Source: an uncultured Fibrobacteria bacterium (GTDB lineage Bacteria; Fibrobacterota; Fibrobacteria; UBA11236). Taken from it: DNA of 64,000 nt. Shown here piece by piece: positions 8,832 through 46,222 of this stretch. The notes under the pieces were generated by a model, which had not been told where the DNA came from, did no database searches, and saw nothing but the letters and a program-made list of their open reading frames with translations. The DNA lies in contig OY970309.1 in assembly GCA_963716395.1 (NCBI GenBank), positions 1,566,485 through 1,630,484 on the forward strand, given 5' to 3'. Numbering within the stretch: position 1 is the first letter of the stretch; every line of letters starts with the position of its first letter. The translations under genes and the position numbers were made by a program.

Positions 8832-10193
8832 ATGGAGGCCATGAAACCCCGCGCGCTGGTGGTCGACGACGAAGCTTCGCTGTGCAGTCTGCTCGAGGTG
8901 TTTTTCGAGCGCCGTGGCTTCGAGGTCGATACGGCCCAAAACCGGCGCGAGGTGCAGAACCTGCTCGGCAAGCCCGAGCCCATGCTGGCCATGGTCGACC
9001 TGGCCCTGGGCAAGGATTCGGGGCTGGCCGTGCAGCAGGATCTCAACGCCCGCTTCACCGCTTTGCCGGTGGTGGTCATGACCGCATACGGCACGGTGGA
9101 AAAGGCGGTGGAGGCCATCAAACTCGGGGCGTTTGATTTCATCACCAAGCCCTTCGACATGGATTTTCTGGGCAAAGTGGTCGACAAAGCCCTGGCCACC
9201 CGCGCCTTGCAGGGCGAAAACCGGGAATTGCGGGCTTTAATCCACCGGCCTGCGGTGGAACTCATCGGATCGTCGCCGGTTCTGGCCACGCTGCGCACGC
9301 GCATCGAGGCCGCGGCCCCGTCCGACAGCACCGTGCTCATCACCGGCGAAAGCGGCACCGGCAAAGAGCTGGTGGCCAAGCTCATCCACCAGAAATCGCG
9401 CCGCGTGGGCAAACCCTTCGTGGTCGTGAATTGCTCGGCGTTGTCCGAAAACCTGCTCGAGTCGGAGCTGTTTGGGCATGTCAAGGGTGCTTTCACCTCG
9501 GCCCATGCCGACAAAGAAGGCCTGTTTTCGGTGGCGGACGGCGGCTCGGTTTTTCTCGACGAGATCGGCGACATGCCGCTCAAAACCCAGGTCAAGCTAT
9601 TGCGCGTGCTACAGGAGCGCGAGGTGACTCCCGTGGGCGGCACCGCCGCGCAGAAGATCGATGTGCGCGTGCTGGCCGCCACCAATGTGGATTTGGAACA
9701 GGCCGTGGCCCAGGGCCGTTTCCGCGAAGACCTGTACTACCGGCTCAATGTACTGCGTCTGCAAACGCCGCGGCTGGCCGACCGCCAGGATGACGCCGTG
9801 ATTCTCGCCACGCATTTTCTGAAGAAGAAAACCCGCGACCGCAAACGCTTTTCCCCCCAGGTGCTGGCCGAGATCAAAGCCTATTCCTGGCCGGGAAACG
9901 TGCGACAGTTGGAGAATGCCGTGGAACGCGCCATCGCCTTCGCACCCGACGAAGTCATCGAAACCCTGGATTTGGATGCACCGCGCGAAGCGCCCGAGAA
10001 GTCCGGGGAGGGCGAACCGGCCCTCGAGGCCGCGGCATTTCCGCCCTCGCTGGTCGAGGTCGAGAAAGCCTACATCCAATGGATTCTGATGCAGCACCAA
10101 TGGCAGAAACCCAAGGCCGCAAAGGTTCTGGGCTTGGATATTTCCACCCTTTATCGGAAAATCGAACGATACGGGTTGAAGCAAAACCCGTGA
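8832..10193 (+). CDS. Sigma-54-dependent response regulator (NtrC/Fis family): receiver + AAA+ + HTH
   Basis: Receiver domain (ALVVDDE...MVDLALGKDSG). Sigma-54 interaction domain ([11 protein letters not shown]; ESELFGHVKGAFT). C-terminal Fis-type HTH. Confidence 0.9.
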   Translation: MEAMKPRALVVDDEASLCSLLEVFFERRGFEVDTAQNRREVQNLLGKPEPMLAMVDLALGKDSGLAVQQDLNARFTALPVVVMTAYGTVEKAVEAIKLGAFDFITKPFDMDFLGKVVDKALATRALQGENRELRALIHRPAVELIGSSPVLATLRTRIEAAAPSDSTVLITGESGTGKELVAKLIHQKSRRVGKPFVVVNCSALSENLLESELFGHVKGAFTSAHADKEGLFSVADGGSVFLDEIGDMPLKTQVKLLRVLQEREVTPVGGTAAQKIDVRVLAATNVDLEQAVAQGRFREDLYYRLNVLRLQTPRLADRQDDAVILATHFLKKKTRDRKRFSPQVLAEIKAYSWPGNVRQLENAVERAIAFAPDEVIETLDLDAPREAPEKSGEGEPALEAAAFPPSLVEVEKAYIQWILMQHQWQKPKAAKVLGLDISTLYRKIERYGLKQNP

Positions 10194-10219
10194 ATTGTGA
10201 ATACCATTTGGGCTTTTCT

Positions 10220-12418
10220 ATGCCGCATTTCCGCCGCCGTCCGGGTCTTGTCTTCGACCGCACACGCCTTTTCCTCGGCGTGCTGTTGGCGGCGGCCCTT
10301 TGTGCCGGAACGGTTCGTGGCGCCACGTCCGATGCCTTGCTGCAGCAATGGCGCCAAGCCCTGGCGGCCCGGTTTCAGTTCGAAAGCGATCATCCCGCCG
10401 CGGCCGCGCTCTTTTCGGGCCGGCGCGATTTTTCCGGAACCGCGGCGTGGCTGGATTCGCTGCGCGGCCCGTTTTGGAATTCGGATTCCACCCTGCGCGG
10501 ATGGAATCTCGTCGCCCAGGCCCTGCTGCTGAACGCCCCACAACCCTCTGCGGCGGATCGCGCCCTCGCGGAACTTTCGCGCCGCTGGGCCGCCTATCCC
10601 GGTTGGTTGTACGAGGCGGCCAAAACCGCCGACCGCGCCGGCGCCGCGCGGCTGGCCGATTCGCTGCGCCTCAATCTGCGCCGGGCTCTCCTGGCGCAAG
10701 GGTACCGGCGTGTGCCGGAATTCGCAGCCGCCAGCCTGTGGACCGGCCTGGAACACATGCGTGTAGGCCGTTATGATCGCGCCCGCGCCGCTTTCGACTT
10801 GGCCGCGGCGTTCGACCCGATTTGCCCGTGGGTTCCCTGGGCCCAGCTCGAAAACTCCATACACGCCTCCGGCCCCTGGCACCTGAATCTGGGGGAGACC
10901 TGGGATTATCTGAGTCAGACCTTTCGGCTGCTGCGTTTTTTCGGCAATCAGTTATTGCTCGCCTACAACGTGCTGCACGCGCTGCGCCTGGGATTTCTGT
11001 ACTTCGGATTTGCCTGCCTGGTGGTTTTGTTCGCGCGCCATTTTTCGCGCCTCGCGCATCCTTGGGCCGAGCGCCTGCCCGGCAACGTCGATTTGCAGGT
11101 ACGCTATGCGGCCATCGCCATGGTGCTCTTGGGTGCAGCCGTGGCCGGCGCCGGCATGGGCATCGCCGCCATGGCGGTGTTCCCCTGGATTTGGCCCCAC
11201 GCCAACCCCGGCGAAAGGCGTCTGATGCGCTGGCTGCTGGCCGGACTGTTTTTACTGCCGGCGGCGCATTGGAGCGAACGCGTTTTGCTGCGGGCTTGGG
11301 ATCCGCAAGATGCCCTGCATGCCTTTCATCTGGCTTCGACGCGCGGCTTTGATCCCGCCGTGCTGCAATTAGCCCGCGAGCAGAAGCCCCGGGATTCTTC
11401 CGACGCGGCGTATCTGGCTTTGGCGCAATCGCTGCAATACAAGAAGCAGGGAAATTACCGGCGCGCCCTGGAAACCGTCGAGGCGGCGCCCGAAAGCACC
11501 ACCGTCCAACCTTTGCTGGAAATTCAAACAGCTGATTTGGCGTTTCTGGGATTCGATTATGCCCGGGCCGAGTCTTTGTTGACGCAAGCCAGTGGTAGGG
11601 CCGGAAACCGCGTCGACCTGTGGTTCAATGCCAGTCAGGCCGCCCTTTTCCAAAACAGTTCGAGCCGCAACAAAGAATATCTCGATCGGGCGGCGTCTGC
11701 CGATGCCACCTTGGTGACGAATTTCCTCAAAGAGAACGACGATTTGTTCGGCTCCAATGTGCCGGCCAACCGGCGGTTGATGGATCCCACGCTCCGCTCC
11801 AGTTCGGTCCTCTACGCGGCGATTTCCAACCGGGGTTGGACGCAACTTTTGACCGCGTCGGTTCCGAGCGGTTTGCTCGTTTTTCCCGGTGGCGTGTGGC
11901 TGGGCCTGTGTCTGGCTGCAAGCGTTCTGGTGTTCGTGCGTGCGCGCCAGAACTTCGTCACCCGGGGCAAGGCGGTCTTCCAATGCAAAATATGCGGAAG
12001 GATTATGTGCCGTACCTGCCGGAAAGGCGTACATTGCGCGCACTGTTTTAAAACCGTATCGGGCGTGGCCGAACCCAAGATGCGGCTGCAATTAATCGAA
12101 CGCCTGCGCCTGCGCAGCCAGTCCTTGACCCTGGTCTTGTTCCGCGCCCTGAATGTGATGGCGCCCGGCAGCGGTTGGCTGTTCCTGGGACGGGCCGATA
12201 CGCATCTTTTGCGCATGCTGTGTGTCTCGATGCTGCTGGCCTGGACGTATCAGGCCCATCACGCCATCCTGGAATATCCGCGCTTCGCGCCGGGCCTCCT
12301 GGTGTCGCTGCCGGGTGTTCTGGTGGTCGCCTATTACGCCGGCACGCTGTGGCGTACCTATCTGTGGCGTAAAGGCGAGTCGCCACCGGTGGCCGCCGAA
12401 ACGGGAGACGGGCTATGA
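10220..12418 (+). CDS. Polytopic membrane protein with helical TPR-like repeats and an embedded Cys-rich zinc-ribbon
   Basis: ATG 10220 gives a signal peptide (MPHFRRRPGLVFDRTRLFLGVLLAAALCAGTVRGA). Several hydrophobic helices. Motif CKICGRIMCRTCRKGVHCAHC (CxxC-x4-CxxC-x5-CxxC) lies between TM segments. No confident family assignment. Confidence 0.6.
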   Translation: MPHFRRRPGLVFDRTRLFLGVLLAAALCAGTVRGATSDALLQQWRQALAARFQFESDHPAAAALFSGRRDFSGTAAWLDSLRGPFWNSDSTLRGWNLVAQALLLNAPQPSAADRALAELSRRWAAYPGWLYEAAKTADRAGAARLADSLRLNLRRALLAQGYRRVPEFAAASLWTGLEHMRVGRYDRARAAFDLAAAFDPICPWVPWAQLENSIHASGPWHLNLGETWDYLSQTFRLLRFFGNQLLLAYNVLHALRLGFLYFGFACLVVLFARHFSRLAHPWAERLPGNVDLQVRYAAIAMVLLGAAVAGAGMGIAAMAVFPWIWPHANPGERRLMRWLLAGLFLLPAAHWSERVLLRAWDPQDALHAFHLASTRGFDPAVLQLAREQKPRDSSDAAYLALAQSLQYKKQGNYRRALETVEAAPESTTVQPLLEIQTADLAFLGFDYARAESLLTQASGRAGNRVDLWFNASQAALFQNSSSRNKEYLDRAASADATLVTNFLKENDDLFGSNVPANRRLMDPTLRSSSVLYAAISNRGWTQLLTASVPSGLLVFPGGVWLGLCLAASVLVFVRARQNFVTRGKAVFQCKICGRIMCRTCRKGVHCAHCFKTVSGVAEPKMRLQLIERLRLRSQSLTLVLFRALNVMAPGSGWLFLGRADTHLLRMLCVSMLLAWTYQAHHAILEYPRFAPGLLVSLPGVLVVAYYAGTLWRTYLWRKGESPPVAAETGDGL

Positions 12419-13497
12419 TCCTTCAAGGCGAACTGCGCGATTTTTCCCTGCCCGACGTGCTGCAACTTTTATGGCAGCAGAAAAAAAGCGGCGCCCTCAC
12501 CGTGACTCAAGCGGGTTCCGAAAAGCGCACGGCGGAAATATTCATCTCGCAGGGAAACATCGTGGGCGTCAGCGTGCAGGGGCGTACACCGGAAAACAAG
12601 ATTCAGGAAATCCTGACCGCTTCCGGCCGGGTGTCGCCGCAGGAAATGGCCGAGCTGGAAACCTTTGCGCGCGACATGGGTCGACCTTTGCTCAGCACGC
12701 TTACGGCCAAGGGGTTGATCCAAGATGCGCAGCGCGAAACGTGGTTTCAAATGGCCGCCGAAGACATGGTGTGCGATTTGTTTGCCTGGAATGACGGACA
12801 ATACGCCTTTTCCACCACCCAGCGCAGCCTGCCGCATGCGCTCGGGACCCTGCGCCTCTCCACCGAGTTCGCTTGCATGGAAGGTATGCGGCGCGTGGAC
12901 GAATGGCCGCATCTCCATGAAGCCCTGACGTCGGATCAAATTGTGTTCCAGGTCACGAGTACGCCGCCCACCGAAGCCTTGGGCGAATGGGAGGCGTTCA
13001 CCTTGGAAGTGGTGAATGGTCGGCGCTCTTTGGCGGAAATCGGGCGCCTGGTCCCTTTCGGCGCTTTCCGGCTTTACGAGTGCATCCTAAATTTGTGGAA
13101 ATCGGGTTGCATCGAACCGACCGGAAGCGTCTCGGCTCAGCCGGCCGAGGCGCTGCCGATCGTGCAACAATCCGATCGGGATCAAAAAACGGCGCTGGTG
13201 CTGGGTTTGGCCGCGGTCTTTCTCCTGTTTATGCTTTTACTGCGGGGTGTGGGGATGTGGGTCGAATTGCAGGGCAACATTCCTCTGCGCCGGGTGGAAA
13301 CGCGTGTGCGCGCCGACTTCGCGCGGCGTAATGCGGAGGTTTTCGTGCTGCAAGACGCCTCTGCAAGGGGGGCGTACCCTCCCGACCTCGACGCCTTGGT
13401 GCGTGCGGGAATGCTGTCGGTGCCCGAAGCCGACGGCCCGGCCGGAGCGCGTTTGCTTTACCACCGTAACGGTGCCCTGGATTTTGTACTGGAATAG
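12415..13497 (+). CDS. DUF4388 domain protein with C-terminal TM segment
   Basis: N-terminus GELRDFSLPDVLQLLWQQKKSGALTV matches the DUF4388 signature (G.L.dfsL.DlLQLL....ktG.L). Hydrophobic segment ALVLGLAAVFLLFMLLL. ATGA overlap with the upstream gene. Confidence 0.65.
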   Translation: MILQGELRDFSLPDVLQLLWQQKKSGALTVTQAGSEKRTAEIFISQGNIVGVSVQGRTPENKIQEILTASGRVSPQEMAELETFARDMGRPLLSTLTAKGLIQDAQRETWFQMAAEDMVCDLFAWNDGQYAFSTTQRSLPHALGTLRLSTEFACMEGMRRVDEWPHLHEALTSDQIVFQVTSTPPTEALGEWEAFTLEVVNGRRSLAEIGRLVPFGAFRLYECILNLWKSGCIEPTGSVSAQPAEALPIVQQSDRDQKTALVLGLAAVFLLFMLLLRGVGMWVELQGNIPLRRVETRVRADFARRNAEVFVLQDASARGAYPPDLDALVRAGMLSVPEADGPAGARLLYHRNGALDFVLE

Positions 13498-13499
13498 CC

Positions 13500-14312
13500 A
13501 TGCCGCTCCTGCTCAAACCCCATCGCGTGGCCTCGCCGGCAGAAATTCTTGAAGCCGATCCCCGTTGCCAGAAATTCGTGCAAAGCTCCACGACGCTGGC
13601 GTATTGCTGTTTACTGATCCGCCGGGGTGACTTGGATTTGGCGCGCCACGTTTGGAAGGTGTTGGCCGAGAACCAAGAGGCCGCTTTCCGCGACGAGTTG
13701 GTGTACTTGCAAGCCTGGATGGACATGAAAGCCCAGGATTTTGCCGCCGCCAAGGCCGCACTCCTGGGCCGCCTGGAAGCCCTGCCGGGCGATATGGCCG
13801 CACTTTCCCTCTTGCAGGCCTGTCTGGTGCTGGAACTGGATGAGAAAGCCCGCGGGTCCGCCAAATCCTACGCGTCTACCAAACCCGCTCCGGTCTTTAC
13901 GTCGCCCTCCGCTCAGGGCGCCATTTCGACACCACCCGGCGCGACGGAAGCGCCGCCCTCCGAAAACAACCCCTATCAAACGGTGCTCTCCGATCCGCAA
14001 ACCCGTGGTCTGGCGTTGTGGTCGGCCGGCGGCGAAGTCGAAAACTTAGGATCGGGCGAAGGGGAAGCGCTCGCCGCTGCGTTACCCGAATTGTTTCCAG
14101 CCTGGTTGGCCGAGGCGGTGGGAAACCTGGAAGGCGGAGAGGCGGTAAAAATCTGCTTCGCCTTTGAACACTGCACCGTCACCACATGGCATGGTGGCGG
14201 TCGGAACGCCGGACTGGTAACCGGGCCCTTGCGGCAATCGTTGCTCACCCTGGCCCGCGCCGAAAAAATTTTCCGCGCGTCCCCGCAGCCTCCGGTCCCG
14301 GAGGTCGCATGA
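13500..14312 (+). CDS. Hypothetical protein (helical N-domain, Pro/Ala-rich linker, small C-domain)
   Basis: 270-aa ORF in operon context. Stop overlaps the next start as ATGA. No recognisable motif. Confidence 0.5.
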   Translation: MPLLLKPHRVASPAEILEADPRCQKFVQSSTTLAYCCLLIRRGDLDLARHVWKVLAENQEAAFRDELVYLQAWMDMKAQDFAAAKAALLGRLEALPGDMAALSLLQACLVLELDEKARGSAKSYASTKPAPVFTSPSAQGAISTPPGATEAPPSENNPYQTVLSDPQTRGLALWSAGGEVENLGSGEGEALAAALPELFPAWLAEAVGNLEGGEAVKICFAFEHCTVTTWHGGGRNAGLVTGPLRQSLLTLARAEKIFRASPQPPVPEVA

Positions 14313-14734
14313 GCGCGGCCCGCACGGCGGCCGAAGTGAATCGCCTTTTGGAAGCGGCCGAGCCCTCCGCCTGTCTCGGATATCTCAGTTTGGTGAACGG
14401 CATCGACGGCGCGGTGTTATTCGACCATCAGGGTTGGGCCATGGCCACGGGCGAAGAAACCACCGAAAACCTGCTTCTCGAAGCGCCGTATTTTCTTTTT
14501 CATTTCCAGGAAGTGCTCCGGAATTTTCAGGAGTTGGGACTCGAGCCGCTGGAGTCCCAAGTCGCGTTTGGCGGCGCGAAATTTTATCTCGTCCTCAATT
14601 TGGAGCGGGAAAGCCGGTTTTTTTTAGTAGTTTCCGGCGCGCGGGGAAGTTACGATCTCTTCAAATACCGGGTGGACCGCGGAGCCCAGGCCATCGTGGG
14701 CCTGCTTCACGGTCGCGGCTATTTCCGGAGTTGA
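14309..14734 (+). CDS. Roadblock/LC7 domain protein (MglB-like), paralogue 1
   Basis: ATG 14309 with GGAGG 4 nt upstream. Pattern LVNGIDGAVLFDHQGWAMATGEE...FYLVLNLERESRFFLVVSGARGSYDLFKY is typical of the Roadblock/LC7 fold. Confidence 0.7.
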   Translation: MSAARTAAEVNRLLEAAEPSACLGYLSLVNGIDGAVLFDHQGWAMATGEETTENLLLEAPYFLFHFQEVLRNFQELGLEPLESQVAFGGAKFYLVLNLERESRFFLVVSGARGSYDLFKYRVDRGAQAIVGLLHGRGYFRS

Positions 14735-14738
14735 ACCC

Positions 14739-15071
14739 ATGCAAGCGGTCTTGGAGCGAATCAACCGGATCAAAGGCGTTAAGGGTTCCAGCATCGTGGG
14801 ATCCGACGGAATCGAAATCGTCTCGGCCTTCCGGGCCCCGGTCCCCTCCGAATTCATCAGCGCCTTGATCGTTTCGATTCAGCAAGCGGCGGCCAAAATC
14901 GTGGCGGCCGCAGAGACCGGCTCTTTGCTGCAAACCATGATTGAAGCGACCGAAGGAAAATTTTTTGTCCAAGTGGTAGGATTGGGATATCTTGTGGTCT
15001 TGGCCGACAGCCAAGCCAACGCGGGATTAATCCGAGTAGAAATAACCCAAGTCAGCCCCTTGATCAAATAA
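14739..15071 (+). CDS. mglB: Roadblock/LC7 domain protein (MglB-like), paralogue 2
   Basis: 110 aa: GVKGSSIVGSDGIEIVSAF...EGKFFVQVVGLGYLVVLADSQANAGLI is a canonical Roadblock pattern. Immediately upstream of the MglA gene, as in characterised mglBA operons. Confidence 0.8.
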   Translation: MQAVLERINRIKGVKGSSIVGSDGIEIVSAFRAPVPSEFISALIVSIQQAAAKIVAAAETGSLLQTMIEATEGKFFVQVVGLGYLVVLADSQANAGLIRVEITQVSPLIK

Positions 15072-15086
15072 GCAGAGGACGATCCT

Positions 15087-16655
15087 GTGGCATCCATCAA
15101 TTACGCAACCCGAGAAATCAGTTGCAAGATCGTGTATTACGGTCCGGGACTGAGCGGCAAAACCACCAATCTGCAAATCATCCACCGCAAAATTCCCGAC
15201 AAGGACAAAAGCGAAATGGTTTCGCTGGCCACTGAAACCGACCGCACCTTGTTTTTCGACTTCCTGCCGCTGGATCTGGGATCGATCAAGGGCTTTTCCA
15301 CCAAGTTCCAGCTTTATACCGTGCCGGGCCAGGTTTACTACAACGCCACCCGCAAGCTGGTGCTGCGCGGCGTCGACGGCGTGGTGTTCGTGGTCGACTC
15401 GCAGACCGACAAGATTCAGGAGAACGTGGAAAGCTTCACCAATCTGCAGGAGAACCTGCGCGAGTACGGGCATGCCATCGAGGCGATTCCACTGGTGCTG
15501 CAATACAACAAGCGCGACCTGCCCAACGTCTATCCGGTGCAGCAATTGAACGACCTGTTCAACAAATGGAACCTCCCCTATTGCGAAGCGGTGGCGGCCA
15601 CCGGGGTTGGCGTGTTCACCACTCTCAAGGCCATCGGCAAATTGGTGATCGACCGCTTCAACGCCAAGTACGCGGGTTTTCAAGGCGCCGGTCGCCGCAT
15701 GCAGCCGGGCCAACGCATGCAGCCTCCGCCGACTTCTCCCGCTCCTTCACCGTCTCGCGGCGATATGCGTCCCTTGCCCACTTCGCCTTTCGGCAGTCCC
15801 ACCGGAATGCCGGGAGGGCCGCGAACCCCGGCTCAGGGGCCCGCCGGTTTTGCTCCGCCGCCGCGCGAAAACCCCTTCGCATCGGCGCCGCCTTCTTTTT
15901 CGCCGGGGGCCCCGGGACCCGGGCACCCGCCGTTCATGATTCCGACACCTTTCCAAACACCTCCGGGAAACGCGCCTTCTCCTGCCGGGGGATTCGCTCC
16001 GCCGCCTCCGCCCGCCCCCAATTATCCGGGCGGCGGTTTTGCCGCCGGCCCGGCACCGTACCCGGGATCCAATGCACCGTTTCCGCCCCCGGGAAATATG
16101 CCCCCGCCGGGCGGATCGCCCGCCCCCGGAGGCATGCCTTCGCGGCCGGGCTTTCCCTCCGCTCCGGGCCCGAGTCCCGGACAGGGTAACATACCGGTTT
16201 CTCCTTTCCTGGATTCGTTCGCCGGTCCCCGGCCGGCCGCCCCGCTGGGCAATCCCGGACCGATTCCGGGATTGCAAACCAGCAACCCGTTCGCGGGGCA
16301 ACGTCCGCCGCCTCCGCCGTTTCCGGCATTCGGCGGCGCGCCACAACCGCAACAGCCGCCACCGCCCCCGTATCCGGGTGGCCCCTTTGCCCCGGGCAAC
16401 ATGCCGTCCATGGGCGGCCCCACCCCTTTCCCCGCACCCAACACACCTTTTCCTCCGACGCGGCCCAACGAACCCGAAGTCGCGCCGCCTCCGCCCCCGC
16501 CCGGGGGGCTGCGCAACAGCTTCGACGACGCCAGCGGTATCGTGTCGACTTATGAAGACGTGCAGCGCAACGAGAATTTCAAAACCAAAAAACTGCCGTT
16601 GCCGGGAGAAAAGAAAAAGGGTTTGTTCGACGGTTTTTTCCGCAAGGACAAATAG
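15087..16655 (+). CDS. mglA: MglA-family Ras-like GTPase fused to ~325-aa Pro/Gly/Ala-rich low-complexity tail with conserved-looking charged C-terminus
   Basis: Residues 1-195 align closely with Myxococcus MglA. P-loop GPGLSGKTT. Switch I TETDRTLFFDF (intrinsic Arg). Switch II TVPGQVYYNATRK. QYNKRDLPN. TGVGVFTTLKA. The reading frame then continues uninterrupted through a Pro-rich region to ...STYEDVQRNENFKTKKLPLPGEKKKGLFDGFFRKDK. Stop 16655, 3 nt before the next start. Confidence 0.85.
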   Translation: MASINYATREISCKIVYYGPGLSGKTTNLQIIHRKIPDKDKSEMVSLATETDRTLFFDFLPLDLGSIKGFSTKFQLYTVPGQVYYNATRKLVLRGVDGVVFVVDSQTDKIQENVESFTNLQENLREYGHAIEAIPLVLQYNKRDLPNVYPVQQLNDLFNKWNLPYCEAVAATGVGVFTTLKAIGKLVIDRFNAKYAGFQGAGRRMQPGQRMQPPPTSPAPSPSRGDMRPLPTSPFGSPTGMPGGPRTPAQGPAGFAPPPRENPFASAPPSFSPGAPGPGHPPFMIPTPFQTPPGNAPSPAGGFAPPPPPAPNYPGGGFAAGPAPYPGSNAPFPPPGNMPPPGGSPAPGGMPSRPGFPSAPGPSPGQGNIPVSPFLDSFAGPRPAAPLGNPGPIPGLQTSNPFAGQRPPPPPFPAFGGAPQPQQPPPPPYPGGPFAPGNMPSMGGPTPFPAPNTPFPPTRPNEPEVAPPPPPPGGLRNSFDDASGIVSTYEDVQRNENFKTKKLPLPGEKKKGLFDGFFRKDK

Positions 16656-16658
16656 CCC

Positions 16659-17144
16659 ATGGGTGATTTCGTCCTCTTCAAAGAGGATGTGGAGCGGATT
16701 CAGAAAATCCTTTCGCATCTGCTGACGGAATCCGCCGCCACCTACGTGCTTTTGATCAACAAAGACGGCAACCTCATCGCCAACGTGGGATTCAGTTCCT
16801 CCATCGACGCGAACAGCCTGGCCGCGCTGGCGGCGGGCAGCTTCGCCTCGACCCGCGCCATTGCGGCGTTGGTGGGGGAAACCGAATTCACCGTGCTGTT
16901 CCATCAAGGCGCGAAAGAGAACATCCACATCTCGCTGGTCGACGAAGACGGAATTCTGGTGCTGATTTTCGACGACCGCACCAATCTCGGCATGGTGAAA
17001 ATGGTGGCCGAGCAGGCACGCCGCAAATTGTCCGAAGTGCTGGACGACGTGCGGGCGAACGAAGTCGACGCGTTGCCTCCGGTGCCCGACGCGGAAAACG
17101 ATGTGGCGGATCGCATCGATTCCCTTTTTCCACCCGGCCCCTGA
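16659..17144 (+). CDS. Roadblock/LC7 domain protein (MglB/MglC-like), paralogue 3, with acidic C-terminal tail
   Basis: ATYVLLINKDGNLIANVGFSSSIDANSLAALAAGSFASTRAIAALVGE...EDGILVLIFDDRTN matches the Roadblock pattern. C-terminal ~40 aa are acidic. Confidence 0.75.
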   Translation: MGDFVLFKEDVERIQKILSHLLTESAATYVLLINKDGNLIANVGFSSSIDANSLAALAAGSFASTRAIAALVGETEFTVLFHQGAKENIHISLVDEDGILVLIFDDRTNLGMVKMVAEQARRKLSEVLDDVRANEVDALPPVPDAENDVADRIDSLFPPGP

Positions 17145-17198
17145 CCCGTTCCGGGGGCGGCGAGTCCGCCGCTTTTCCTTTTCTCCAAGTGCGGGCGC

Positions 17199-18239
<1,041 letters not shown>

Positions 18240-18335
18240 TTTTGCGCGCGGTTTGCCCGTCGGGCACGGCGGTTGGCGTTATATTGATCTTTGAACTATG
18301 GTCAACGCGCCGCGACGTTTCCGCGGGGGGCAAAT

Positions 18336-20441
18336 GTGAAGGCGCGCCGCATTCTCGGACTGGGAATTATCGCCGTCCTCTCCCTGGTCGTTTTATGTAT
18401 TCCGGGGTCCACGCGTTTTGCCCGCCCTTTTTTTTATCGCCTGTTCTTAGCCTTGCCGGCCCGGCATTCCGATCCTGTCACCCGCGTCGTCACTACGACG
18501 CCAGAGAATTTGCCGGCCGTCCTGCAGGAATTGACCACGGCGCAACCCAAATTGATCGCCTTGGATCCGGCGCTGTGGCAGGGTCGCGGCGACGAGGTGC
18601 AAAATCTATTGGCCCTCTTGCGCGGCATTCCGGTGGTGTTGGGATGGGCGGCCGATTCCGCAGGTCCGGGGATCGCCGTTTCCGAACCCGCCGCGCCGAT
18701 GCCGCGTCTTTCCACTTTGGAAGGCGCGCTGGCGATGAGCCTGCCGGTCATCCATCTGCGCGCCGGCGAGGCCCCACCCGCGCGTTTCGGTAACGTCTCG
18801 GCCGGTTGGGAGGTAGAGCCCAAGGGCCCGATTAATTCTTTGCAGGCTTTGGCGCGCCAGGGCGACGCCATCGTCCCATCGGCGGGCCTGGAAACTTTGC
18901 GCCGCAGTGCCGAGGTGTTTCCCGATCGCATCGCCTATGTGGACGGGATCGGCCTTTTCATCGGCAAGGATCTCACTTTGCCGTTGACCGCCCGGGGCAA
19001 GGTGCTCCTGCGCTTGCGATCCGCCGCGCCGATTCCGGCCGGGGTGCTGCCGCAGAATCTGGAGGCGATGGCCGGTAAAATCATCCTAGTCGGATCGCCG
19101 CAGCATGTGGTCGCCACCGCGGCCGGCCCGCGGTTGGCGGTCGAAACCTGGGCCTCGCTGGTCGACGACGCCCTGGCCCACGAAACCTTGGCGTTACCTG
19201 CGGGTGCGCCCTGGGTGGCCGCCGGCGTGGGCGCGGCCGGCATCCTGGCCGTGGAATTGGCTTTCTTCTTCGGCATGGAGGCGGGCGGTTTGGCCGCCTT
19301 GGCCGGCGGGCTGTCGCTGTTGTACCCCTTGCTGTCGCTGGGATTTTTCCTGGGTGCGAACTGGTGGCTGCCGCCCGACAAACCCTTCTTCACCCTGCTG
19401 GCCGCGGGCGCCGCCGCGGCGCTGTTCGCGGTGGGAAGAGGCCGTGCCGATGCCCCGGTCCGGCCTGAGCCGCCTCGGCCAATCCGGACGCCGTTGCCCA
19501 AGACGCCCCTGGCGGCATCGTCCGCGGGGTCCCCCTCTCGGCCGCATGTGCATGCCCCGCGCCTCGGCGAGAAACCGCCGTCGGCCGAGTCGGGGCTGGA
19601 GCGCGACGCACAGGGGCAATTGACTCGCCTCGGACGCTACCGCATCGTGCGGAAAATGAGCTCGGGATCGTCGGGAGATGTTTTCGAAGGCCTCGATACC
19701 CACATGGCGCGGCGGGTCGCCGTCAAGACCATGGCCCGCGGCGCGTCGCTGCATTTCGATCACGCGCTGGAACGCTTTCAGGTCGAGGCCAAGGCGGCGG
19801 GATCGCTCAACCACCCCAACATCAACACCGTCCACGATTTCGGCACCCTCGGCGATGTTTCTTACATGGTCCTCGAGTATCTCGACGGCGTCACGCTGTC
19901 GCAGTGGATGCGCAGCCATCCCATTCCGCCTCCGCCGGCTGTGCAGGAATGGGTTCGTCAAATCGCCGCTGCGCTCGACTACGCCCATGCCCACCACGTC
20001 ATCCACCGCGACCTTAAGCCCAGCAACCTCATGGTGGTCGACGAGGGAAAGACGGTCAAGCTCCTCGACTTCGGCGTGGCCAAAGTCGAAGACGTTATGC
20101 TGACCCAGACCGGCATGACCGTGGGCACCCCGTCGTACATGTCTCCCGAACAATTGCAGGGCGAAAAGGTGACCGCCGCCTCGGATCAGTACTCCCTGGC
20201 CGTGGTGCTCTATCAGCTTTACAGCCACCGGCTGCCCTACGGCGGCAGCCGCATTCCCGAGATTTGCGGGCACATTCTCAAAGGGGAATTCATTCCGCTG
20301 CACGAGGCCAATCCCGTCTTGGATCCGGCCTATTGGGAGGTGTTTCTGCGCGCGCTGCGGCGCGATCCCGCCGAGCGGTTTCCCGATTGCCGTGCCCTGG
20401 GCGATGAACTCGAAGGTGTACGCGCGCATTCCGCCCCGTAA
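18336..20441 (+). CDS. Membrane Ser/Thr protein kinase with N-terminal extracytoplasmic (CHASE2-like) sensor domain
   Basis: GTG 18336 start gives a TM anchor (ILGLGIIAVLSLVVLC). ~300-aa sensor region, then hydrophobic helices. C-terminal Hanks kinase (VAVKTM; HRDLKPSNLMV; DFGVAK; GTPSYMSPE). Confidence 0.8.
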   Translation: MKARRILGLGIIAVLSLVVLCIPGSTRFARPFFYRLFLALPARHSDPVTRVVTTTPENLPAVLQELTTAQPKLIALDPALWQGRGDEVQNLLALLRGIPVVLGWAADSAGPGIAVSEPAAPMPRLSTLEGALAMSLPVIHLRAGEAPPARFGNVSAGWEVEPKGPINSLQALARQGDAIVPSAGLETLRRSAEVFPDRIAYVDGIGLFIGKDLTLPLTARGKVLLRLRSAAPIPAGVLPQNLEAMAGKIILVGSPQHVVATAAGPRLAVETWASLVDDALAHETLALPAGAPWVAAGVGAAGILAVELAFFFGMEAGGLAALAGGLSLLYPLLSLGFFLGANWWLPPDKPFFTLLAAGAAAALFAVGRGRADAPVRPEPPRPIRTPLPKTPLAASSAGSPSRPHVHAPRLGEKPPSAESGLERDAQGQLTRLGRYRIVRKMSSGSSGDVFEGLDTHMARRVAVKTMARGASLHFDHALERFQVEAKAAGSLNHPNINTVHDFGTLGDVSYMVLEYLDGVTLSQWMRSHPIPPPPAVQEWVRQIAAALDYAHAHHVIHRDLKPSNLMVVDEGKTVKLLDFGVAKVEDVMLTQTGMTVGTPSYMSPEQLQGEKVTAASDQYSLAVVLYQLYSHRLPYGGSRIPEICGHILKGEFIPLHEANPVLDPAYWEVFLRALRRDPAERFPDCRALGDELEGVRAHSAP

Positions 20442-25230: not shown

Positions 25231-25528
25231 TATCGACCCCTGGGAAAACGTCGCTTGCGACGGAACACACGGGGCGCTTCATCCACAGCGGTGAGGCGGA
25301 TGATTGAGAGTGAAAAGAGAACGGTAGGGAGAAGGCGAGCGTGGCCGGGGAAAGGCGCCGAGAAATCGGAGCAAGACCTCGGGCAATCGCAAAAAGGGGT
25401 TTTGCCACTCAAGGCGCAAGTCTTAAGCGGATCACAAAACCCGCCCGATGCGTGGATGGATGCATTGGGAAGCTTCACAAAGAAGCAAATCTCCGGAAAT
25501 TAGAGTTTTAATCAGTGAACGAAGGATC

Positions 25529-27070
<1,542 letters not shown>

Positions 27071-27450: not shown

Positions 27451-30424
<2,974 letters not shown>

Positions 30425-30651
30425 ATTATCTTCGCCTTCGGTCAATTCAAGGTCTTCCCTTGAACCCAATCCGAAGGAGCCAAGTGCTTCCTGCCCAAAG
30501 CAGGTGGTACACAACAAAAGAACCAAGGTTGGTTGCGAAAGCTTCCCGCCAATACCAAGATTCTTGGTCCTTAATGCGATCTCACCTCCGTTCTAATGCA
30601 AAAATTAGGGCGGAAAAAAACAAATCGAAATATGGCTTCGCCAAACGAGTC

Positions 30652-30768
<117 letters not shown>

Positions 30769-30785
30769 GTTATTTCAAAAAAAAT

Positions 30786-41253: not shown

Positions 41254-43260
41254 CTAACCCAACAAATCCACTTGGGACATCGGTCCCGAGGCCTTAGGCC
41301 ACATTCCATCCCCGGTTTCGGCAGCTTGGGCTTGGGATTTTTCCGGCAGCGGGGCATACGACCAGCCGCTAAGCCGCATCTCAAGATCCGACAGGAGGTG
41401 CTCGAGCGGCGCCAGCGATTGCGACAGCAGTTCGCGCACGTCGCCGCGGTTGTTGCGAAAGTCGAGATGCGACCCGCGGCGATCCAGCGAGAGCTTGATC
41501 TCCACCTCTCCCAGATGCGGGGTCTGGGTGCGGATCTGGAGTTGCACCGGAGGCCGCTCCGCCGGCGGCCGCCCGCGCTGCGGTGCCGCGCCCACCTGCG
41601 ACCATTGCACGCCGGCCGGATGCCAGGCGTTGTCGAAGAAGTAGTAGGTTTGCGCCTCACCCGGCGTCGCCGCCTCGGGGCGCGGGGTGGAGCCGGTTAC
41701 GGTTTGCAGCCAATATTTACCTGCGGCATCGAGTTTTCCCCCGTCGGGAGCTGCGTTTCGCAGCGCGTCGAGCAAATCGTCGAGGCGCGCATCGGTCCGG
41801 CCCAAATCGGCCAACGCTTGCGACCACGAAGAATGAGCGGCGGCCGTCGGGTCCGTCTCCGATGCAACGGCGGCGCGCAGGGGCAAATCGCGCGTAAGCA
41901 GCGCGGCGTCGGCGTCGGGCCGCACCTGTTCCAGAAAGTCGGTGAAAGCGGCGGGATTGCGGCCGGCATTGCTCCAGGCTTGCGTTTGCGGCGCGGTGGC
42001 GTCGCGGGGAAAAGCCAAAACCAGGCGGAGCAGGAAATTCATTTCATCTTGTGCAGGCAGGGGTTGCCCCCCTTGCAATCTGCCGGAATCGGCCAGCACA
42101 TGGGCCAAATCCAATACGGCCTGTGCGCCGCCCGGTTGATTCAAATCGGGTTCCAAAAAATCGGCGGCCAGCCGCAGCGCCGATTGCCGCGGCGGATCGG
42201 CCGCGGTCAGCGCCGTCTGCAAAGCCGGCGGCCAACTGCGCTCGGGGCTTTGAAACCGCATCACCAGGTTTCCGGATTCGCGCTGCAGCGAAAAGCGCAC
42301 GAAATCGCCGGGCGCGCGCGTTTCCGTAGAAACCGCTTCAAGGGAGGCGCCGCCCAAATCCAGCCGGTAGCGCGTCAGTGACGGTTGCTGCAATCTGGTG
42401 GGGTCGGAGGCCTCGGGCCCGGATTCGGCCCGCCGGCCTGCCGGGCCCGGCAAGGCGGCGGAACGGCTTTCGAGCACCAAGCCGTGGCCGGTGAACAAGG
42501 CCGATCCCGTCGCCGGAACCAGGTAACGCGGAAGTTCCTTCCCCGTGTTTAGGGAGGGCGGTGTCGGGATCGCGTCGGCCGCCGCGGGGTTCGACGCCGC
42601 ACCGGACGACGGCAGAGTCGTGGCGCCGGAAACGGCGACCTTCTCATTAGTATCATCCATGTTACTACTGGTGCCGAGCGCACGGCGAAAGCCTTGCAGC
42701 AGGGTCAATAATTCGCGCTGCCCCGCCTGGTCGGCGGGAGCCGGGAGTTGCGCCAGCGCGCCGATCAAGGTCTTCAAGGTTGCCGAAGGCAACTGACCGA
42801 TTTGCTGCGTGAGAAATTCCAGACCGTCGGGTTGGCTCAAAACCTGGCGCAACAAGACGGGCAAGGATTGCATCGCCGGCGGTGCCGCGGTTCCGGTGGC
42901 GGCGGCGGCCAAAAATCCGGACAGGGCGTTTTCGAAACGGCTGAGGTCGCGCAGCAGGGCGGGCCAATTGGCAGGCATCCCGACGTCGGGGCCGGGATCG
43001 GCCGGGTCTTCGGCGGGATCGGCCGGCTTTTCGACGCGCCAGCCGTTGGCCGTGACAGTGAGCTTCAATACGTCGCCGGCCTGCACGTCGTCGGGAACCT
43101 CGGCGCGCAGGCGGCCCAGGGCGAAGTCGATCACCGCGACCTTTTTCCCCGCCGCGTCGGTTTGCACAGCGTCGACTCGGCCGGGATAGCTTGCGCCCGG
43201 CGCCCCTTCGGGCGCGGATGCGGAAAACGGACGGCCGGCGGAAATCGGCGTGGGCATCAC
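41254..43260 (-). CDS. Pro/Ala-rich protein with FliK-like C-terminal domain (putative flagellar hook-length control protein)
   Basis: 668 aa low-complexity. C-terminal segment LGEVEIKLSLDRRGSHLDFRNNRGDVRELLSQSLAPLEHLLSDLEMRL fits the Flg_hook pattern. Located near flgKL. Confidence 0.55.
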   Translation of the reverse strand: MMPTPISAGRPFSASAPEGAPGASYPGRVDAVQTDAAGKKVAVIDFALGRLRAEVPDDVQAGDVLKLTVTANGWRVEKPADPAEDPADPGPDVGMPANWPALLRDLSRFENALSGFLAAAATGTAAPPAMQSLPVLLRQVLSQPDGLEFLTQQIGQLPSATLKTLIGALAQLPAPADQAGQRELLTLLQGFRRALGTSSNMDDTNEKVAVSGATTLPSSGAASNPAAADAIPTPPSLNTGKELPRYLVPATGSALFTGHGLVLESRSAALPGPAGRRAESGPEASDPTRLQQPSLTRYRLDLGGASLEAVSTETRAPGDFVRFSLQRESGNLVMRFQSPERSWPPALQTALTAADPPRQSALRLAADFLEPDLNQPGGAQAVLDLAHVLADSGRLQGGQPLPAQDEMNFLLRLVLAFPRDATAPQTQAWSNAGRNPAAFTDFLEQVRPDADAALLTRDLPLRAAVASETDPTAAAHSSWSQALADLGRTDARLDDLLDALRNAAPDGGKLDAAGKYWLQTVTGSTPRPEAATPGEAQTYYFFDNAWHPAGVQWSQVGAAPQRGRPPAERPPVQLQIRTQTPHLGEVEIKLSLDRRGSHLDFRNNRGDVRELLSQSLAPLEHLLSDLEMRLSGWSYAPLPEKSQAQAAETGDGMWPKASGPMSQVDLLG

Positions 43261-43336
43261 TCCTCCCCCTCTTTATATCGGCCGCGGTGAACGAATGCTG
43301 TTGCGGGCTAAAGCCGCCGGCCGCCGAAAATGCGGG

Positions 43337-44302
43337 TCAGCCGCGTTCGCGGCGGATGCGGATGATGAGATCGACCTGATCCTGCCCCATGCGCAGGCGG
43401 CGGGCGATTTCCGAAGGGGTCATGCCTTTGCGGGCATAGCGTAATACCTCTTCGCGTTGCCGTTCCAGTTGCTCGAACTCGGTGGTTTCGGGCATTTTTC
43501 CGAGGGGAGGATCGTCGGTGGTTTCGGCGTCGGTCCTGGGTGCCGATAACGCATGCGCGCCTTCGTCTTCCATGGACAGCGCAGGTACGGTCCACACCGC
43601 GTCGGGGTCGGGGGGCGGAACCGGAGGCGCTGCGGAGAGGTCTTCGAGAAATTCCAGATCCACTTTGCCCACCCGCGGCGGTTCGGTCGGCGCGGTTTCG
43701 GGCTCTTGGAACAGCGGTTCGACGGGCCGTGTGGTCGGCCCAGGCGAAGGTTCGTCCCAGGGGGCGGCCGTGTCGGCTTCAGCGGGTTTGGCGGGTTCGT
43801 CGCCGCGTCGCGCCGCGGTTTGCAAATGTGCCATCTCCTCGGCTTTGCGATTTTCGATCCCGAAGTGCCGAGGTGCTTGCGTCGCGGCGGTCTTGGACCC
43901 CAGGGCGCGGCCGGCCAAGGCGCCCGCGATGGGAAAACCGAGTCCGAGGGCCGCCAGCCACATCCACAGATCGCCGACCCACACTCCGAATCCCGACAGC
44001 GAAGCATGGGATTGCGATTGCACCCATGCTCCCAACTGGCCGCGCAAAGCGGTGTATCGACGCCAGGCGTTCTCCTGTGCGGTTTTCAAATCGTCCGGAA
44101 CCTTCGGCGCCGCGGCGATTTGCTGTTCGCGCTGCTGCAAGCCAAGGTATTCGCTTTGCATTTCCCGTTTCCAAGTCGGTAGCTTATGGCCCGCAAGGGC
44201 CAGGACCGTCACGCGCACGGGCGTCAGATAGACGACTCCCGTCACAGCCACGAAGGCGACAAACCCCCATCCGACTCCCGGCCAAATTTTACTGCGTTTC
44301 AT
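43337..44302 (-). CDS. Membrane protein with Pro-rich region and C-terminal HTH-like segment
   Basis: N-terminal TM, second TM (LWMWLAALGLGFPIAGALAG). C-terminal RYARKGMTPSEIARRLRMGQDQVDLIIRIRRE. Confidence 0.45.
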   Translation of the reverse strand: MKRSKIWPGVGWGFVAFVAVTGVVYLTPVRVTVLALAGHKLPTWKREMQSEYLGLQQREQQIAAAPKVPDDLKTAQENAWRRYTALRGQLGAWVQSQSHASLSGFGVWVGDLWMWLAALGLGFPIAGALAGRALGSKTAATQAPRHFGIENRKAEEMAHLQTAARRGDEPAKPAEADTAAPWDEPSPGPTTRPVEPLFQEPETAPTEPPRVGKVDLEFLEDLSAAPPVPPPDPDAVWTVPALSMEDEGAHALSAPRTDAETTDDPPLGKMPETTEFEQLERQREEVLRYARKGMTPSEIARRLRMGQDQVDLIIRIRRERG

Positions 44303-44387
44303 GGGTTCTCATCGCAAAATGTACTCGCATCCCCTGGTGAAATCGCTGGGAAGGGCACGCGCCTTTTGATATAGTTTTTCGGGTAGT

Positions 44388-45011
44388 ATGGCCAAGTTTA
44401 TTTTGCGTTACCAGAATCAAACGGTATCGGAACACAATCTGGGCCCGGGATTCAACAACATCGGGCGGCTGCCTTCAAACTCGATCCGCGTGGATAACCC
44501 CGGCATCTCGCGGCAACACGCTTTTGTTTTGGGCGATGCGGGCGGCGGAATTTTCGTGATCGAGGATTTGGAAAGCCTGAACGGCACCTATGTGAACAAG
44601 CGCCGGGTGCAGAAGCATTGGCTGCGTCCGGGCGATGTGGTGACGGTGGGACAACATACGCTGGAGTTTGTGGAAGACGAGGGTGGGTCGACGGCTGTCG
44701 GCGCACCGGCGGCCCACGAACCCTATCTCGAGGAATTGCCTGCGGGAAAAAAACATGCTCTGCACAAAGACGTGGTCTACTTCGGCAACAGCAGCGCCGA
44801 TGATATTCAGATTCCCGGTCTCATGGTGGGCAAGAATTTCGCCAGCTTGAATCGCAAAGGCAATATCTGGGTCGCCAACCTGCTGGTCAAACGCTTTTCG
44901 CAACTGCGTCTGAACGATGAGGAAATCCATTCGGCCAAGGTCGAAGACGGAGACGCGCTGGAAGTGGCCGGTGTGAAATTCGTGCTGCACTTGCCCGGCT
45001 CCGCGATTTAA
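44388..45011 (+). CDS. Tandem FHA-domain protein
   Basis: Two FHA-like halves: GRLPSNSIRVDNPGISRQHAFV...NGTYVN...GDVVTVG, and GNSSADDIQIPGLMVGKNFASLNRKGNIWVANLL... Confidence 0.75.
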   Translation: MAKFILRYQNQTVSEHNLGPGFNNIGRLPSNSIRVDNPGISRQHAFVLGDAGGGIFVIEDLESLNGTYVNKRRVQKHWLRPGDVVTVGQHTLEFVEDEGGSTAVGAPAAHEPYLEELPAGKKHALHKDVVYFGNSSADDIQIPGLMVGKNFASLNRKGNIWVANLLVKRFSQLRLNDEEIHSAKVEDGDALEVAGVKFVLHLPGSAI

Positions 45012-45035
45012 AGCCCCGCCGGAAGATGCCCGGCG

Positions 45036-46208: not shown

Positions 46209-46222
46209 GGGGAAATCCTTTC

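Follow-up and report, generated by a model that had tools for sequence, protein, structure and literature searches.

A long-tailed MglA GTPase conserved in Fibrobacterota, with a disordered linker and a putative membrane-targeting C-terminus

This study concerns mglA-long, a gene encoding a 522-residue MglA-type GTPase in a 64,000-nucleotide (nt) stretch of DNA from an uncultured Fibrobacteria bacterium (GenBank assembly GCA_963716395.1, contig OY970309.1, positions 1,566,485 to 1,630,484 of the forward strand; this whole stretch is hereafter the window, and coordinates are counted from its first letter). We found that the gene product fuses an MglA G domain to a long C-terminal tail, that this fusion is real and conserved, that the features of MglA and of its partner MglB are intact, and that the extreme C-terminus matches a membrane-targeting motif, i.e., that of MinD. 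The explanation that we consider best, holding it with modest confidence, is that the protein would act as a membrane-tethered MglA switch built of three parts (a GTPase, a disordered linker and an end module). The gene and its parts are as follows:

15087..16655, + strand: mglA-long coding sequence, 522 amino acids (aa), GTG start, TAG stop
15087..15671, + strand: MglA G domain, residues 1-195 (P-loop G19-T26, R53, T78, Q82, NKRD 141-144)
15672..16523, + strand: intrinsically disordered Pro/Gly/Ala/Phe-rich linker, residues 196-479, of low charge and with evenly spaced Phe
15870..15878, + strand: first NPF motif, residues 262-264 (RENPFASAPPS), a conserved island with F264 nearly invariant
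16191..16220, + strand: IPVSPFLDSF, residues 369-378; P370 invariant, P373 and F378 at least 90% conserved (23 tails)
16284..16292, + strand: second NPF motif, residues 400-402 (GLQTSNPFAGQ), a conserved island in the alignment
16533..16559, + strand: SGIVSTYED, residues 483-491; G484 invariant, S483, I485, V486, T488, E490 and D491 at least 90% conserved
16578..16619, + strand: polybasic/Pro stretch FKTKKLPLPGEKKK, residues 498-511; K499, T500, P506, K510 and K511 invariant
16620..16652, + strand: GLFDGFFRKDK, residues 512-522, a putative amphipathic helix for membrane targeting; hydrophobic positions i, i+1, i+4 and i+5, like the MinD membrane-targeting sequence

A sequence-only reading of this DNA had identified the first ~195 residues as an MglA, and comparison with proteins of known structure bore this out. 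Residues 1-191 align without gaps to Myxococcus xanthus MglA (PDB 5ymx/6h17, E ~3e-75, 61% identity) and to Thermus MglA (3t12, E 2e-72), and the Pfam families Ras, Arf and Gtr1_RagA match the domain above their cut-offs. The P-loop (G19PGLSGKT26) and N141KRD144 are present, and in the gap-free alignment the switch-I arginine R53 (TETDRTLFFDF) and T78-V-P-G-Q82 are the same as in M. xanthus MglA; Thr78, which replaces Asp in the G3 motif, is given as a feature of MglA in PMC3000849. Also kept are L64, I67, K181 and K185, which in M. xanthus MglA form the pocket for the C-terminal helix of MglB (PMC6785124). Judged by its residues, the domain classes as a group-1 MglA with a complete catalytic set, and the product agrees with the MglA family in every sequence criterion except size (522 aa, against the ~150-240 aa that Wuichet & Søgaard-Andersen 2015 used as their working definition). 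At the start of the gene, a GAGGA ribosome-binding-like site lies 8 nt upstream of the GTG, the N-terminus MASINYATREISCK agrees exactly with those of homologues, and the exact protein (P0001) was also found in public sequence data.

The same reading had noted that the frame stays open through a low-complexity Pro/Gly/Ala tail, that the tail closes in a conserved-looking segment, and that the stop lies just before the next gene. All three points hold: the tail comprises 327 residues (P 31%, G 15%, A 9%), nine residues of its closing segment (K499, T500, P506, K510, K511, G512, F514, G516 and F518) are invariant in 23 relatives, and the TAG (16653-16655) precedes the ATG of mglB (16659) by 3 nt. 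An open frame is, however, weak coding evidence in this region, because in GC-rich low-complexity DNA a frame can stay open by chance. Across the tail, the two remaining forward frames contain only 1 and 2 stops, and an Arg/Gly-rich antisense open reading frame (ORF) of 495 aa (15747-17234, - strand), almost certainly a compositional artefact and not a gene, overlaps both the tail and mglB. Frame-specific GC content and stop counts were accordingly dropped as coding proof, since Pro/Gly/Ala codons leave all frames GC-rich and nearly open.

Orthologous loci proved more informative. A scan with one genome per species yielded 17 loci, all from Fibrobacteria or Fibrobacterota metagenome-assembled genomes, of which 13 extend to the 3' end of mglA-long and form the basis of the complete-ORF counts. 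The fusion is present in 17/17 loci, and in 13/13 complete loci an unbroken ORF runs from the G domain to the same C-terminus (...FKTKKLPxPxEKKKGFFDGLFKKDK), giving proteins of 506-719 aa whose stop lies 3-7 nt before mglB. Tail length in these 13 loci ranges from 311 to 524 aa with the frame open throughout, and it is because the frame is held despite this variation that we regard the tail as coding. Moreover, the tail uses codons much as the genome does elsewhere, and more than 100 independent metagenome proteins share the same layout. We looked for DNA tandem repeats in the tail and found none, which led us to reject recent microsatellite expansion as its origin. In the public homologues P0016 (910 aa) and P0022 (425 aa), the tail becomes rich in Arg and Ser, and P0016 reads through into mglB; these look like visible frameshift errors in GC-rich low-complexity DNA, and they show that such regions are error-prone in other assemblies. 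For mglA-long itself, the comparison of loci excludes a frameshift artefact for practical purposes. In the 13 complete loci the gene lies within an operon of eight genes that is itself conserved. All 17 loci have one gene order: a sigma-54 response regulator and a 779-aa membrane protein (with a zinc-ribbon-like motif) come first, followed by a PATAN protein, proteins of 270 aa and 141 aa, the 110-aa Roadblock protein, mglA-long and mglB.

How widespread are such proteins? The best 120 database matches to the full protein were all 297-910 aa long, in a ranking that is biased by the low-complexity tail. When only the G domain was searched against 1.84 billion cluster representatives, 149 long proteins (255-717 aa) were found among the best 150, i.e., long MglAs occupy at least 149 clusters at 50% identity, Zixibacteria included, a figure that is a lower bound on diversity and not a frequency. 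Named members belong to Fibrobacterota, Chitinivibrionales/Chitinispirillaceae and Zixibacteria. A DLDxEIxRYxxE motif occurs in ~60 of the long MglA homologues.

Larger MglAs have surfaced in the literature before. Fremgen et al. 2010 (PMC3000849) list 'group 2' larger MglA-like proteins, including one of 313 aa from Fibrobacter succinogenes, and Wuichet & Søgaard-Andersen 2015 (PMC4316618) left 39/488 MglA-subclade sequences of more than 240 aa out of their classification. Our literature search for a membrane-anchored or disordered-tailed MglA returned no such description and no analysis of the tail. It thus appears that long forms have been mentioned in passing with their nature undescribed, and that the membrane-targeting reading of the tail is new. 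The long tail is the standard form in Fibrobacterota, and the membrane-type end is one of several in a large overlooked class. The sequence-only reading had called a tailed MglA unusual, which is true against the handful of characterised MglAs but not against 17/17 Fibrobacterota loci and at least 149 clusters; it had also said that its view would fall if the fusion were common and already annotated in a well-studied clade, and of these two the fusion is indeed common, but not already annotated in such a clade.

A Pfam scan of the tail gave no match, and AlphaFold2 (AF2), run on the full protein with a 23-sequence alignment, assigned the linker no secondary structure and a predicted local distance difference test (pLDDT) score below 55, within a model that was poor as a whole (mean pLDDT 46.5, with low confidence even in the G domain). 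Eight polyproline tracts of 3-6 Pro each (15723-16505, starting at residues 213, 257, 305, 333, 339, 407, 424 and 467) interrupt it, and translation of the tail is likely to depend on the elongation factor EF-P. We analysed linker composition in 14 orthologues, which are related sequences and hence not independent. Pro makes up 24-31% of these linkers, charged residues only 2.7-6.4%, and Phe a constant 6.4-8.4%, with almost no Tyr or Trp. Phe residues are spaced more evenly than in shuffled sequences in 14/14 orthologues (z -1.05 to -3.35), adjacent FF pairs are absent from all 14 linkers, and Gly is enriched ~2-fold on either side of Phe (GFG, PFG, GFP), making GFG the top tripeptide. Collagen-like GXY repeats were considered and rejected, the longest run being 2 triplets.

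When the tails of 23 close relatives were aligned, the G domain was nearly invariant and the tails were mostly unalignable apart from islands, which include the NPF and IPVSPFLDSF motifs listed above. NPF occurs 89 times in the tails vs 23 times in one shuffle, and PF[ILV][DEQN]x[FY], the pattern of the SPFLDSF island, is found in 20 proteins vs 0 in the shuffle. The linker is, in short, disordered yet constrained.

The last 43 residues (480-522) form a conserved end module consisting of an acidic/hydrophobic motif, a basic Pro-containing stretch and the terminal GLFDGFFRKDK. The first of these, SGIVSTYED, recurs in 25 proteins vs 0 in a shuffle, and its counterpart in Chitinivibrionia-type proteins, [FY]F[ST][ST][VIM]-D, in 61 vs 0. 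Those proteins have the same three parts made of other residues (MYFTSVDTD, then RQKKPVRRPVNPRTQQQK, then GFLSKFFNKD). The last 30 residues of the mglA-long product bear a net charge of +6.

This end resembles that of MinD. The window protein ends EKKKGLFDGFFRKDK (GEKKKGLFDGFFRKDK), the clade consensus is EKKKGFFDGLFKKDK, and the C-terminus of Escherichia coli MinD, which we retrieved, is EEEKKGFLKRLFGG, ending EEKKGFLKRLFGG; all share the register KK-G-ΦΦxxΦΦ (Φ, hydrophobic residue), with EKKK-G-LF-DG-FF-RK in the window protein vs EEKK-G-FL-KR-LF-GG in MinD. The hydrophobic contribution to the Wimley-White interfacial energy is -3.95 kcal/mol, vs -3.38 for MinD. To count such ends we used a detector requiring ΦΦxxΦΦ and at least 2 K/R within the last 22 residues, which recovered MinD as a positive control. 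It was positive for 121/255 long MglAs, vs 8/2642 internal tail windows (0.3%) and 10/574 ends of unrelated ORFs (1.7%). The positive ends are distributed over several separate G-domain clusters, Zixibacteria among them, and follow linkers rich in Pro/Gly, Gln, Glu/Lys or Ala. In 20 other long MglAs, the end is a true hydrophobic transmembrane helix following an Ala/Pro-rich linker. Tail-anchored-looking homologues of this kind include P0168, P0185, P0186, P0191, P0193, P0199, P0205, P0207-P0209, P0213, P0230, P0236, P0246, P0249, P0256 and others.

We infer from these patterns that the terminal motif probably attaches the protein to the membrane. Membrane attachment is favoured because an amphipathic helix and a transmembrane helix interchange at the same position across clades, and this interchange is the strongest indirect argument for it. 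Tethering had been proposed from the sequence alone, to a pole, the membrane or a motility machine; it remains our best reading, and of the three targets the motif, its conservation and the controls favour the membrane.

Several observations weigh against this reading. The Eisenberg hydrophobic moment of the last 11 residues is 0.45, unexceptional vs 0.61 ± 0.08 in shuffled tails, and since this measure failed to single out the C-terminus, we relied on the motif, its conservation and the controls instead. The core of the helix spans only ~8-9 residues, Asp and Gly among them, and AF2 gave no C-terminal helix in the model described above. SGIVSTYED and FKTKKLPxP are conserved more tightly than lipid binding needs, a hint that they contact another protein. 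In one Fibrobacterota subclade the end, YPTRRMPLGPGQ, lacks an amphipathic helix, so that membrane binding cannot be the sole role of the tails, and elsewhere the C-terminus is a beta-rich module (…VPVEV…RFKLSLRLRLE) or an acidic motif, DSPFIDLQPF. The counts of long MglA proteins are inflated, because a cluster tends to be represented by its longest member and because short MglAs fall into few clusters of their own or are taken up by others. Lastly, the literature search found no experiment on any long-tailed MglA.

Other ways of using the C-terminus were also considered. A PDB sequence search with the C-terminal 40-mer returned no match. A CAAX, CC or CXC lipidation box was rejected (the tail contains no Cys and ends ...FFRKDK), as was, by inference, a secretion-type C-terminal domain, the GTPase being cytoplasmic and the end module merely 43 residues long.

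The alternative that survives best, and which we nonetheless deem unlikely, is that the end module is a protein-docking peptide and not a lipid-binding helix, following the logic of FtsZ and SSB, in which a folded domain is joined by a disordered linker to a conserved tip. Its partners could be the PATAN protein, the zinc-ribbon membrane protein, a Roadblock dimer or a pilus/flagellar component, candidates that are conserved in the operon; in a variant, the tip folds back onto the protein's own MglB-helix pocket. The ~30 residues that precede the helix (SGIVSTYED...FKTKKLPxP) are also conserved, and more strictly than membrane targeting would require, which speaks for docking, as do the acidic/hydrophobic motifs of the tail (FDDASGIVSTYED, SPFLDSF). 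There is also precedent in M. xanthus, where GltJ reads MglA-GTP and MglB via short linear motifs and a zinc-ribbon (PMC11135422), and geometry is favourable: the tail exits helix alpha-5 beside the K181/K185/L64/I67 pocket, which binds the acidic helices of MglB and RomR (PMC6785124). Docking leaves unexplained, however, why other clades have a transmembrane helix at the same position and why the MinD-like final 11 residues occur across clades with unrelated linkers.

More doubtful is the idea that the tail mainly self-associates, with regularly placed Phe residues as stickers on a Pro/Gly spacer that condenses into a polar or membrane-surface patch (a condensate or gel) concentrating MglA and its clients, the C-terminal motif being secondary. 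In its favour, Phe is nearly the sole aromatic residue of the linker and is held at a constant level, few residues are charged, FF pairs are missing, Phe is spaced more evenly than expected by chance, and GFG, PFG and GFP are enriched, traits that also mark disordered chains of the aromatic sticker-spacer type, FG-repeat domains among them. The Pro content of the linker is nonetheless atypical, as FG-repeat and prion-like domains carry far less Pro, and high Pro plus Gly favours a soluble, expanded chain. Moreover, the 14/14 result does not amount to 14 independent tests, the orthologues being kin, and two of the z-scores are only ~-1; the tails of other clades are Gln-, Glu/Lys- or Ala-rich, so that Phe stickers are not general. 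Self-association could in any case coexist with tethering.

Finally, it is highly improbable that the tail arose from a frameshift joining a normal mglA to a downstream gene, or that it is junk in the form of neutral, functionless low-complexity read-through: the near-open alternative frames, the antisense ORF and the frameshifted P0016 and P0022 would be in its favour, but the frame and C-terminus are kept in all complete loci over widely differing tail lengths, the invariant end module and internal motifs lie in frame, codon usage is genome-like, tandem repeats are absent, and mglB directly follows the stop in each complete locus.

Returning to membrane tethering, the preferred reading, its mechanism may be pictured as follows. 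MglB, whose gene begins 3 nt downstream, would switch off the group-1 MglA GTPase, and the two Roadblock-fold proteins from the genes just upstream would probably add further regulation. The terminal helix and the polybasic stretch would bind the cytoplasmic face of the inner membrane, and the linker of ~285 residues would leave the G domain free to search a layer ~15-20 nm deep (a polymer-scaling estimate for ~315 residues, whose contour length is ~110 nm). The GTP/GDP switch would then act in two dimensions, beside membrane-embedded partners, for which the candidates are the co-operonic zinc-ribbon membrane protein, the PATAN protein and pilus or flagellar machinery. Membrane binding by MinD is weak and depends on multimerisation (PMC8155659), and because a single helix of this type binds weakly, stable attachment likely needs clustering; the sticky Phe-rich linker is a candidate source of such clustering and cooperativity.

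This picture can be taken further, to a proposal that we regard as speculative and, taken whole, less probable than any of the above except an artefact. Long-tailed MglAs might be the bacterial counterpart of membrane-anchored eukaryotic small GTPases, building their own polarity patch. The weak helix and the Phe-studded linker would provide cooperative binding, and its acidic motifs (SPFLDSF, DDASGIVSTYED) would vie in cis with MglB- or RomR-type helices for the K181/K185 pocket, so that attachment, clustering and nucleotide exchange are coupled in a self-organising, Min- or Cdc42-like reaction-diffusion switch.

The protein can be set against several known systems. Canonical MglAs (M. xanthus MXAN_1925, Thermus thermophilus) share with it the G domain, the catalytic residues, the pocket and an adjacent MglB with an acidic C-terminal helix. 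They measure ~195 aa, however, as opposed to 522 aa, with mglB upstream and not downstream, and the operon in the window adds two extra Roadblock proteins, the PATAN protein and the zinc-ribbon membrane protein. The characterised MglAs are soluble and reach the pole via effectors. Closer in layout are the group 2 MglA-like proteins of PMC3000849, which include members of the same phylum, and the >240-aa set of PMC4316618: both combine an MglA-type G domain with a C-terminal extension. In these papers the long forms are listed by size only, with no motif, anchor or mechanism proposed. The 313-aa F. succinogenes protein has a shorter extension and was scored as lacking an MglB partner.

The likeness to MinD (and to amphipathic anchors of the FtsA type) lies in the KK-G-ΦΦxxΦΦ motif at the extreme C-terminus, its basic flanks, its interfacial energy and the weak affinity expected of a single copy. 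MinD is a ParA-type ATPase whose helix works via ATP-driven dimerisation. Its helix directly follows the fold, whereas that of the window protein lies ~315 residues away from a monomeric Ras-like fold, and there is no homology beyond the motif. FtsZ likewise has a nucleotide switch that is tied to the membrane by a short conserved end, across a linker that is long, varies in length and shows little conservation; in Mycoplasma this end is an amphipathic membrane helix according to a preprint (bioRxiv 10.1101/2023.08.29.555414); FtsZ, however, has a tubulin-like fold and polymerises, whereas MglA is Ras-like and nothing suggests that it polymerises. To eukaryotic Ras, Rho and Rab proteins the analogy is functional (a small GTPase, a variable spacer, basic residues and a membrane anchor), with the differences that the window protein has a peptide anchor, ends RKDK with no CAAX or CC, and has a spacer ~10 times longer, and that other clades use a transmembrane helix. 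In the way it would work, the window protein comes closest to this eukaryotic layout and, among bacteria, to that of FtsZ. As for RomR, in which a receiver domain is followed by a disordered region and then by an acidic helix rich in Glu (PMC10329633), both proteins pass from a folded domain through disorder to a short functional element at the C-terminus, and both belong to an MglA polarity circuit. The sequence-only reading had likened the tail to the Pro-rich linker of RomR-type scaffolds, a resemblance that did not survive beyond composition: homology was rejected, as the window protein begins with a GTPase domain that has no Response_reg match, ends in a basic segment (+6) and shares with RomR only its Pro-rich composition.

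The Ras-like GTPases of bacteria are regarded as small, soluble switches that depend on partners to reach the pole; in eukaryotes, Ras, Rho and Rab owe their role as spatial organisers to a variable C-terminal region with a membrane anchor. Should the tails prove to be membrane tethers, MglAs of many and diverse kinds would follow this eukaryotic design principle with peptide anchors, an amphipathic or a transmembrane helix, and Fibrobacterota, Zixibacteria and many unnamed lineages would be covered, among them proteins that a length cut-off has omitted from the reference classification. It would also change how far polarity models based on M. xanthus can be generalised, provide an easily testable handle (the 11-residue end, which could be moved onto another protein), and point to a conserved module (zinc-ribbon membrane protein, PATAN, three Roadblock proteins, MglA) that merits study, in a phylum that matters for the breakdown of cellulose and chitin.

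The remaining genes of the operon, in the order in which they lie in the window, are:

10079..12418, + strand: polytopic membrane protein, 779 aa; weak TPR match, five hydrophobic 19-mers
12415..13497, + strand: PATAN (DUF4388/PatA_N) protein, 360 aa; Pfam PF14332, E 2e-27
13500..14312, + strand: conserved 270-aa protein, conserved in the loci
14309..14734, + strand: cryptic Roadblock-fold protein, 141 aa (from AF2 and Foldseek)
14739..15071, + strand: Roadblock/LC7 protein, 110 aa; Pfam PF03259, E 3e-8; immediately upstream of mglA-long
16659..17144, + strand: mglB, 161 aa, the cognate GTPase-activating protein, with an acidic C-terminal helix region (...DAENDVADRIDSLFPPGP); Pfam Robl_LC7, NCBIfam MglB
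17153..17176, + strand: terminator-like GC-rich hairpin followed by a T run; 10-bp stem with 6 GC pairs, by consensus match only

MglB, whose gene lies immediately 3' of mglA-long in 13 loci, matches M. xanthus MglB (6izw_B) from residue 4 to 160 (E 3e-26), a span that takes in the acidic C-terminal helix region, and the operon likely ends at the hairpin directly after it. On the other side of mglA-long, the 110-aa Roadblock protein is 75-84% identical in all loci. The 141-aa gene before it begins at a true ATG at 14309, inside a listed ORF of 182 aa that starts at 14186, and overlaps the preceding stop by 4 nt; the exact 141-aa protein (P0272) is present in the source genome. No family was detected for it by Pfam, by a PDB-sequence profile search or by hhalign against a Roadblock alignment. 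Its AF2 model (pLDDT 90.6), however, has M. xanthus MglB (6hjm) as top Foldseek match (template-modelling score 0.67-0.79, E 1e-6). One distant homologue of the 141-aa protein bears Pfam PF08923 (MAPKK1_Int/LAMTOR3). With this modelled fold included, three Roadblock-fold proteins are predicted to flank the GTPase.

The 270-aa protein gave no Pfam match, no PDB profile match and no hhalign match to Roadblock. It has conserved N-terminal (helical-looking) and C-terminal regions with an Ala/Pro/Ser-rich linker between them, varies from ~260 to 414 aa among orthologues, and is the second linker-containing protein of the operon. The PATAN gene is kept in both Fibrobacteria loci and Chitinivibrionia-type loci; PATAN genes are reported to lie near mglA/mglB, and their products to contact the type IV pilus motor (bioRxiv 10.1101/2021.06.11.447907). 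In the 779-aa protein, nt 11984-12046 encode the Cys6 zinc-ribbon-like motif CKICGRIMCRTCRKGVHCAHC (CxxCx4CxxCx5CxxC), found in 14/14 orthologues. In M. xanthus GltJ, a linker motif reads MglA-GTP, a zinc-ribbon domain reads MglB and a GYF domain binds a Pro-rich sequence (PMC11135422); by analogy, the Cys6 motif recalls the GltJ zinc-ribbon, and may serve as a lead for partners, not as evidence.

Upstream of the operon, a sigma-54 activator with a receiver domain (8832-10193) is kept in the loci. Downstream (17199-20441) lie a sigma-54 activator with no receiver domain and a CHASE2-Ser/Thr kinase, a pair kept only in the closest locus, L016. A Chitinivibrionia-type locus (L020, 1360-10300) contains three flagellin genes, a TPR gene, a PATAN gene, an MglA-long of 523 aa ending KGFLSKFFNKD and a Roadblock protein of 242 aa; this gene order places the core module in more than one class of the phylum, beside flagellar genes. 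In another locus, L019 (1686-2855), a protein known from a single contig (P0063) joins an MglA G domain via a Pro/Gln/Tyr linker to a FliN-type (FliMN_C) domain, its gene being flanked by a PATAN gene on one side and by cheY-like, fliO and other genes on the other; P0063 may be a genuine fusion of MglA with FliN or else the product of a mis-assembly.

Within the window, 25-40 kb downstream (41254-47905, 51166-52761 and 57019-58119), there are genes for a FliK-like protein, an FlgL-like protein with a flagellin N-terminal domain, FlgK, a secretin and PilZ, and the organism is probably flagellated, with a secretin-based system. The window also contains a complete rRNA operon, with 16S at 25528-27064, 23S at 27457-30428 and 5S at 30654-30769.

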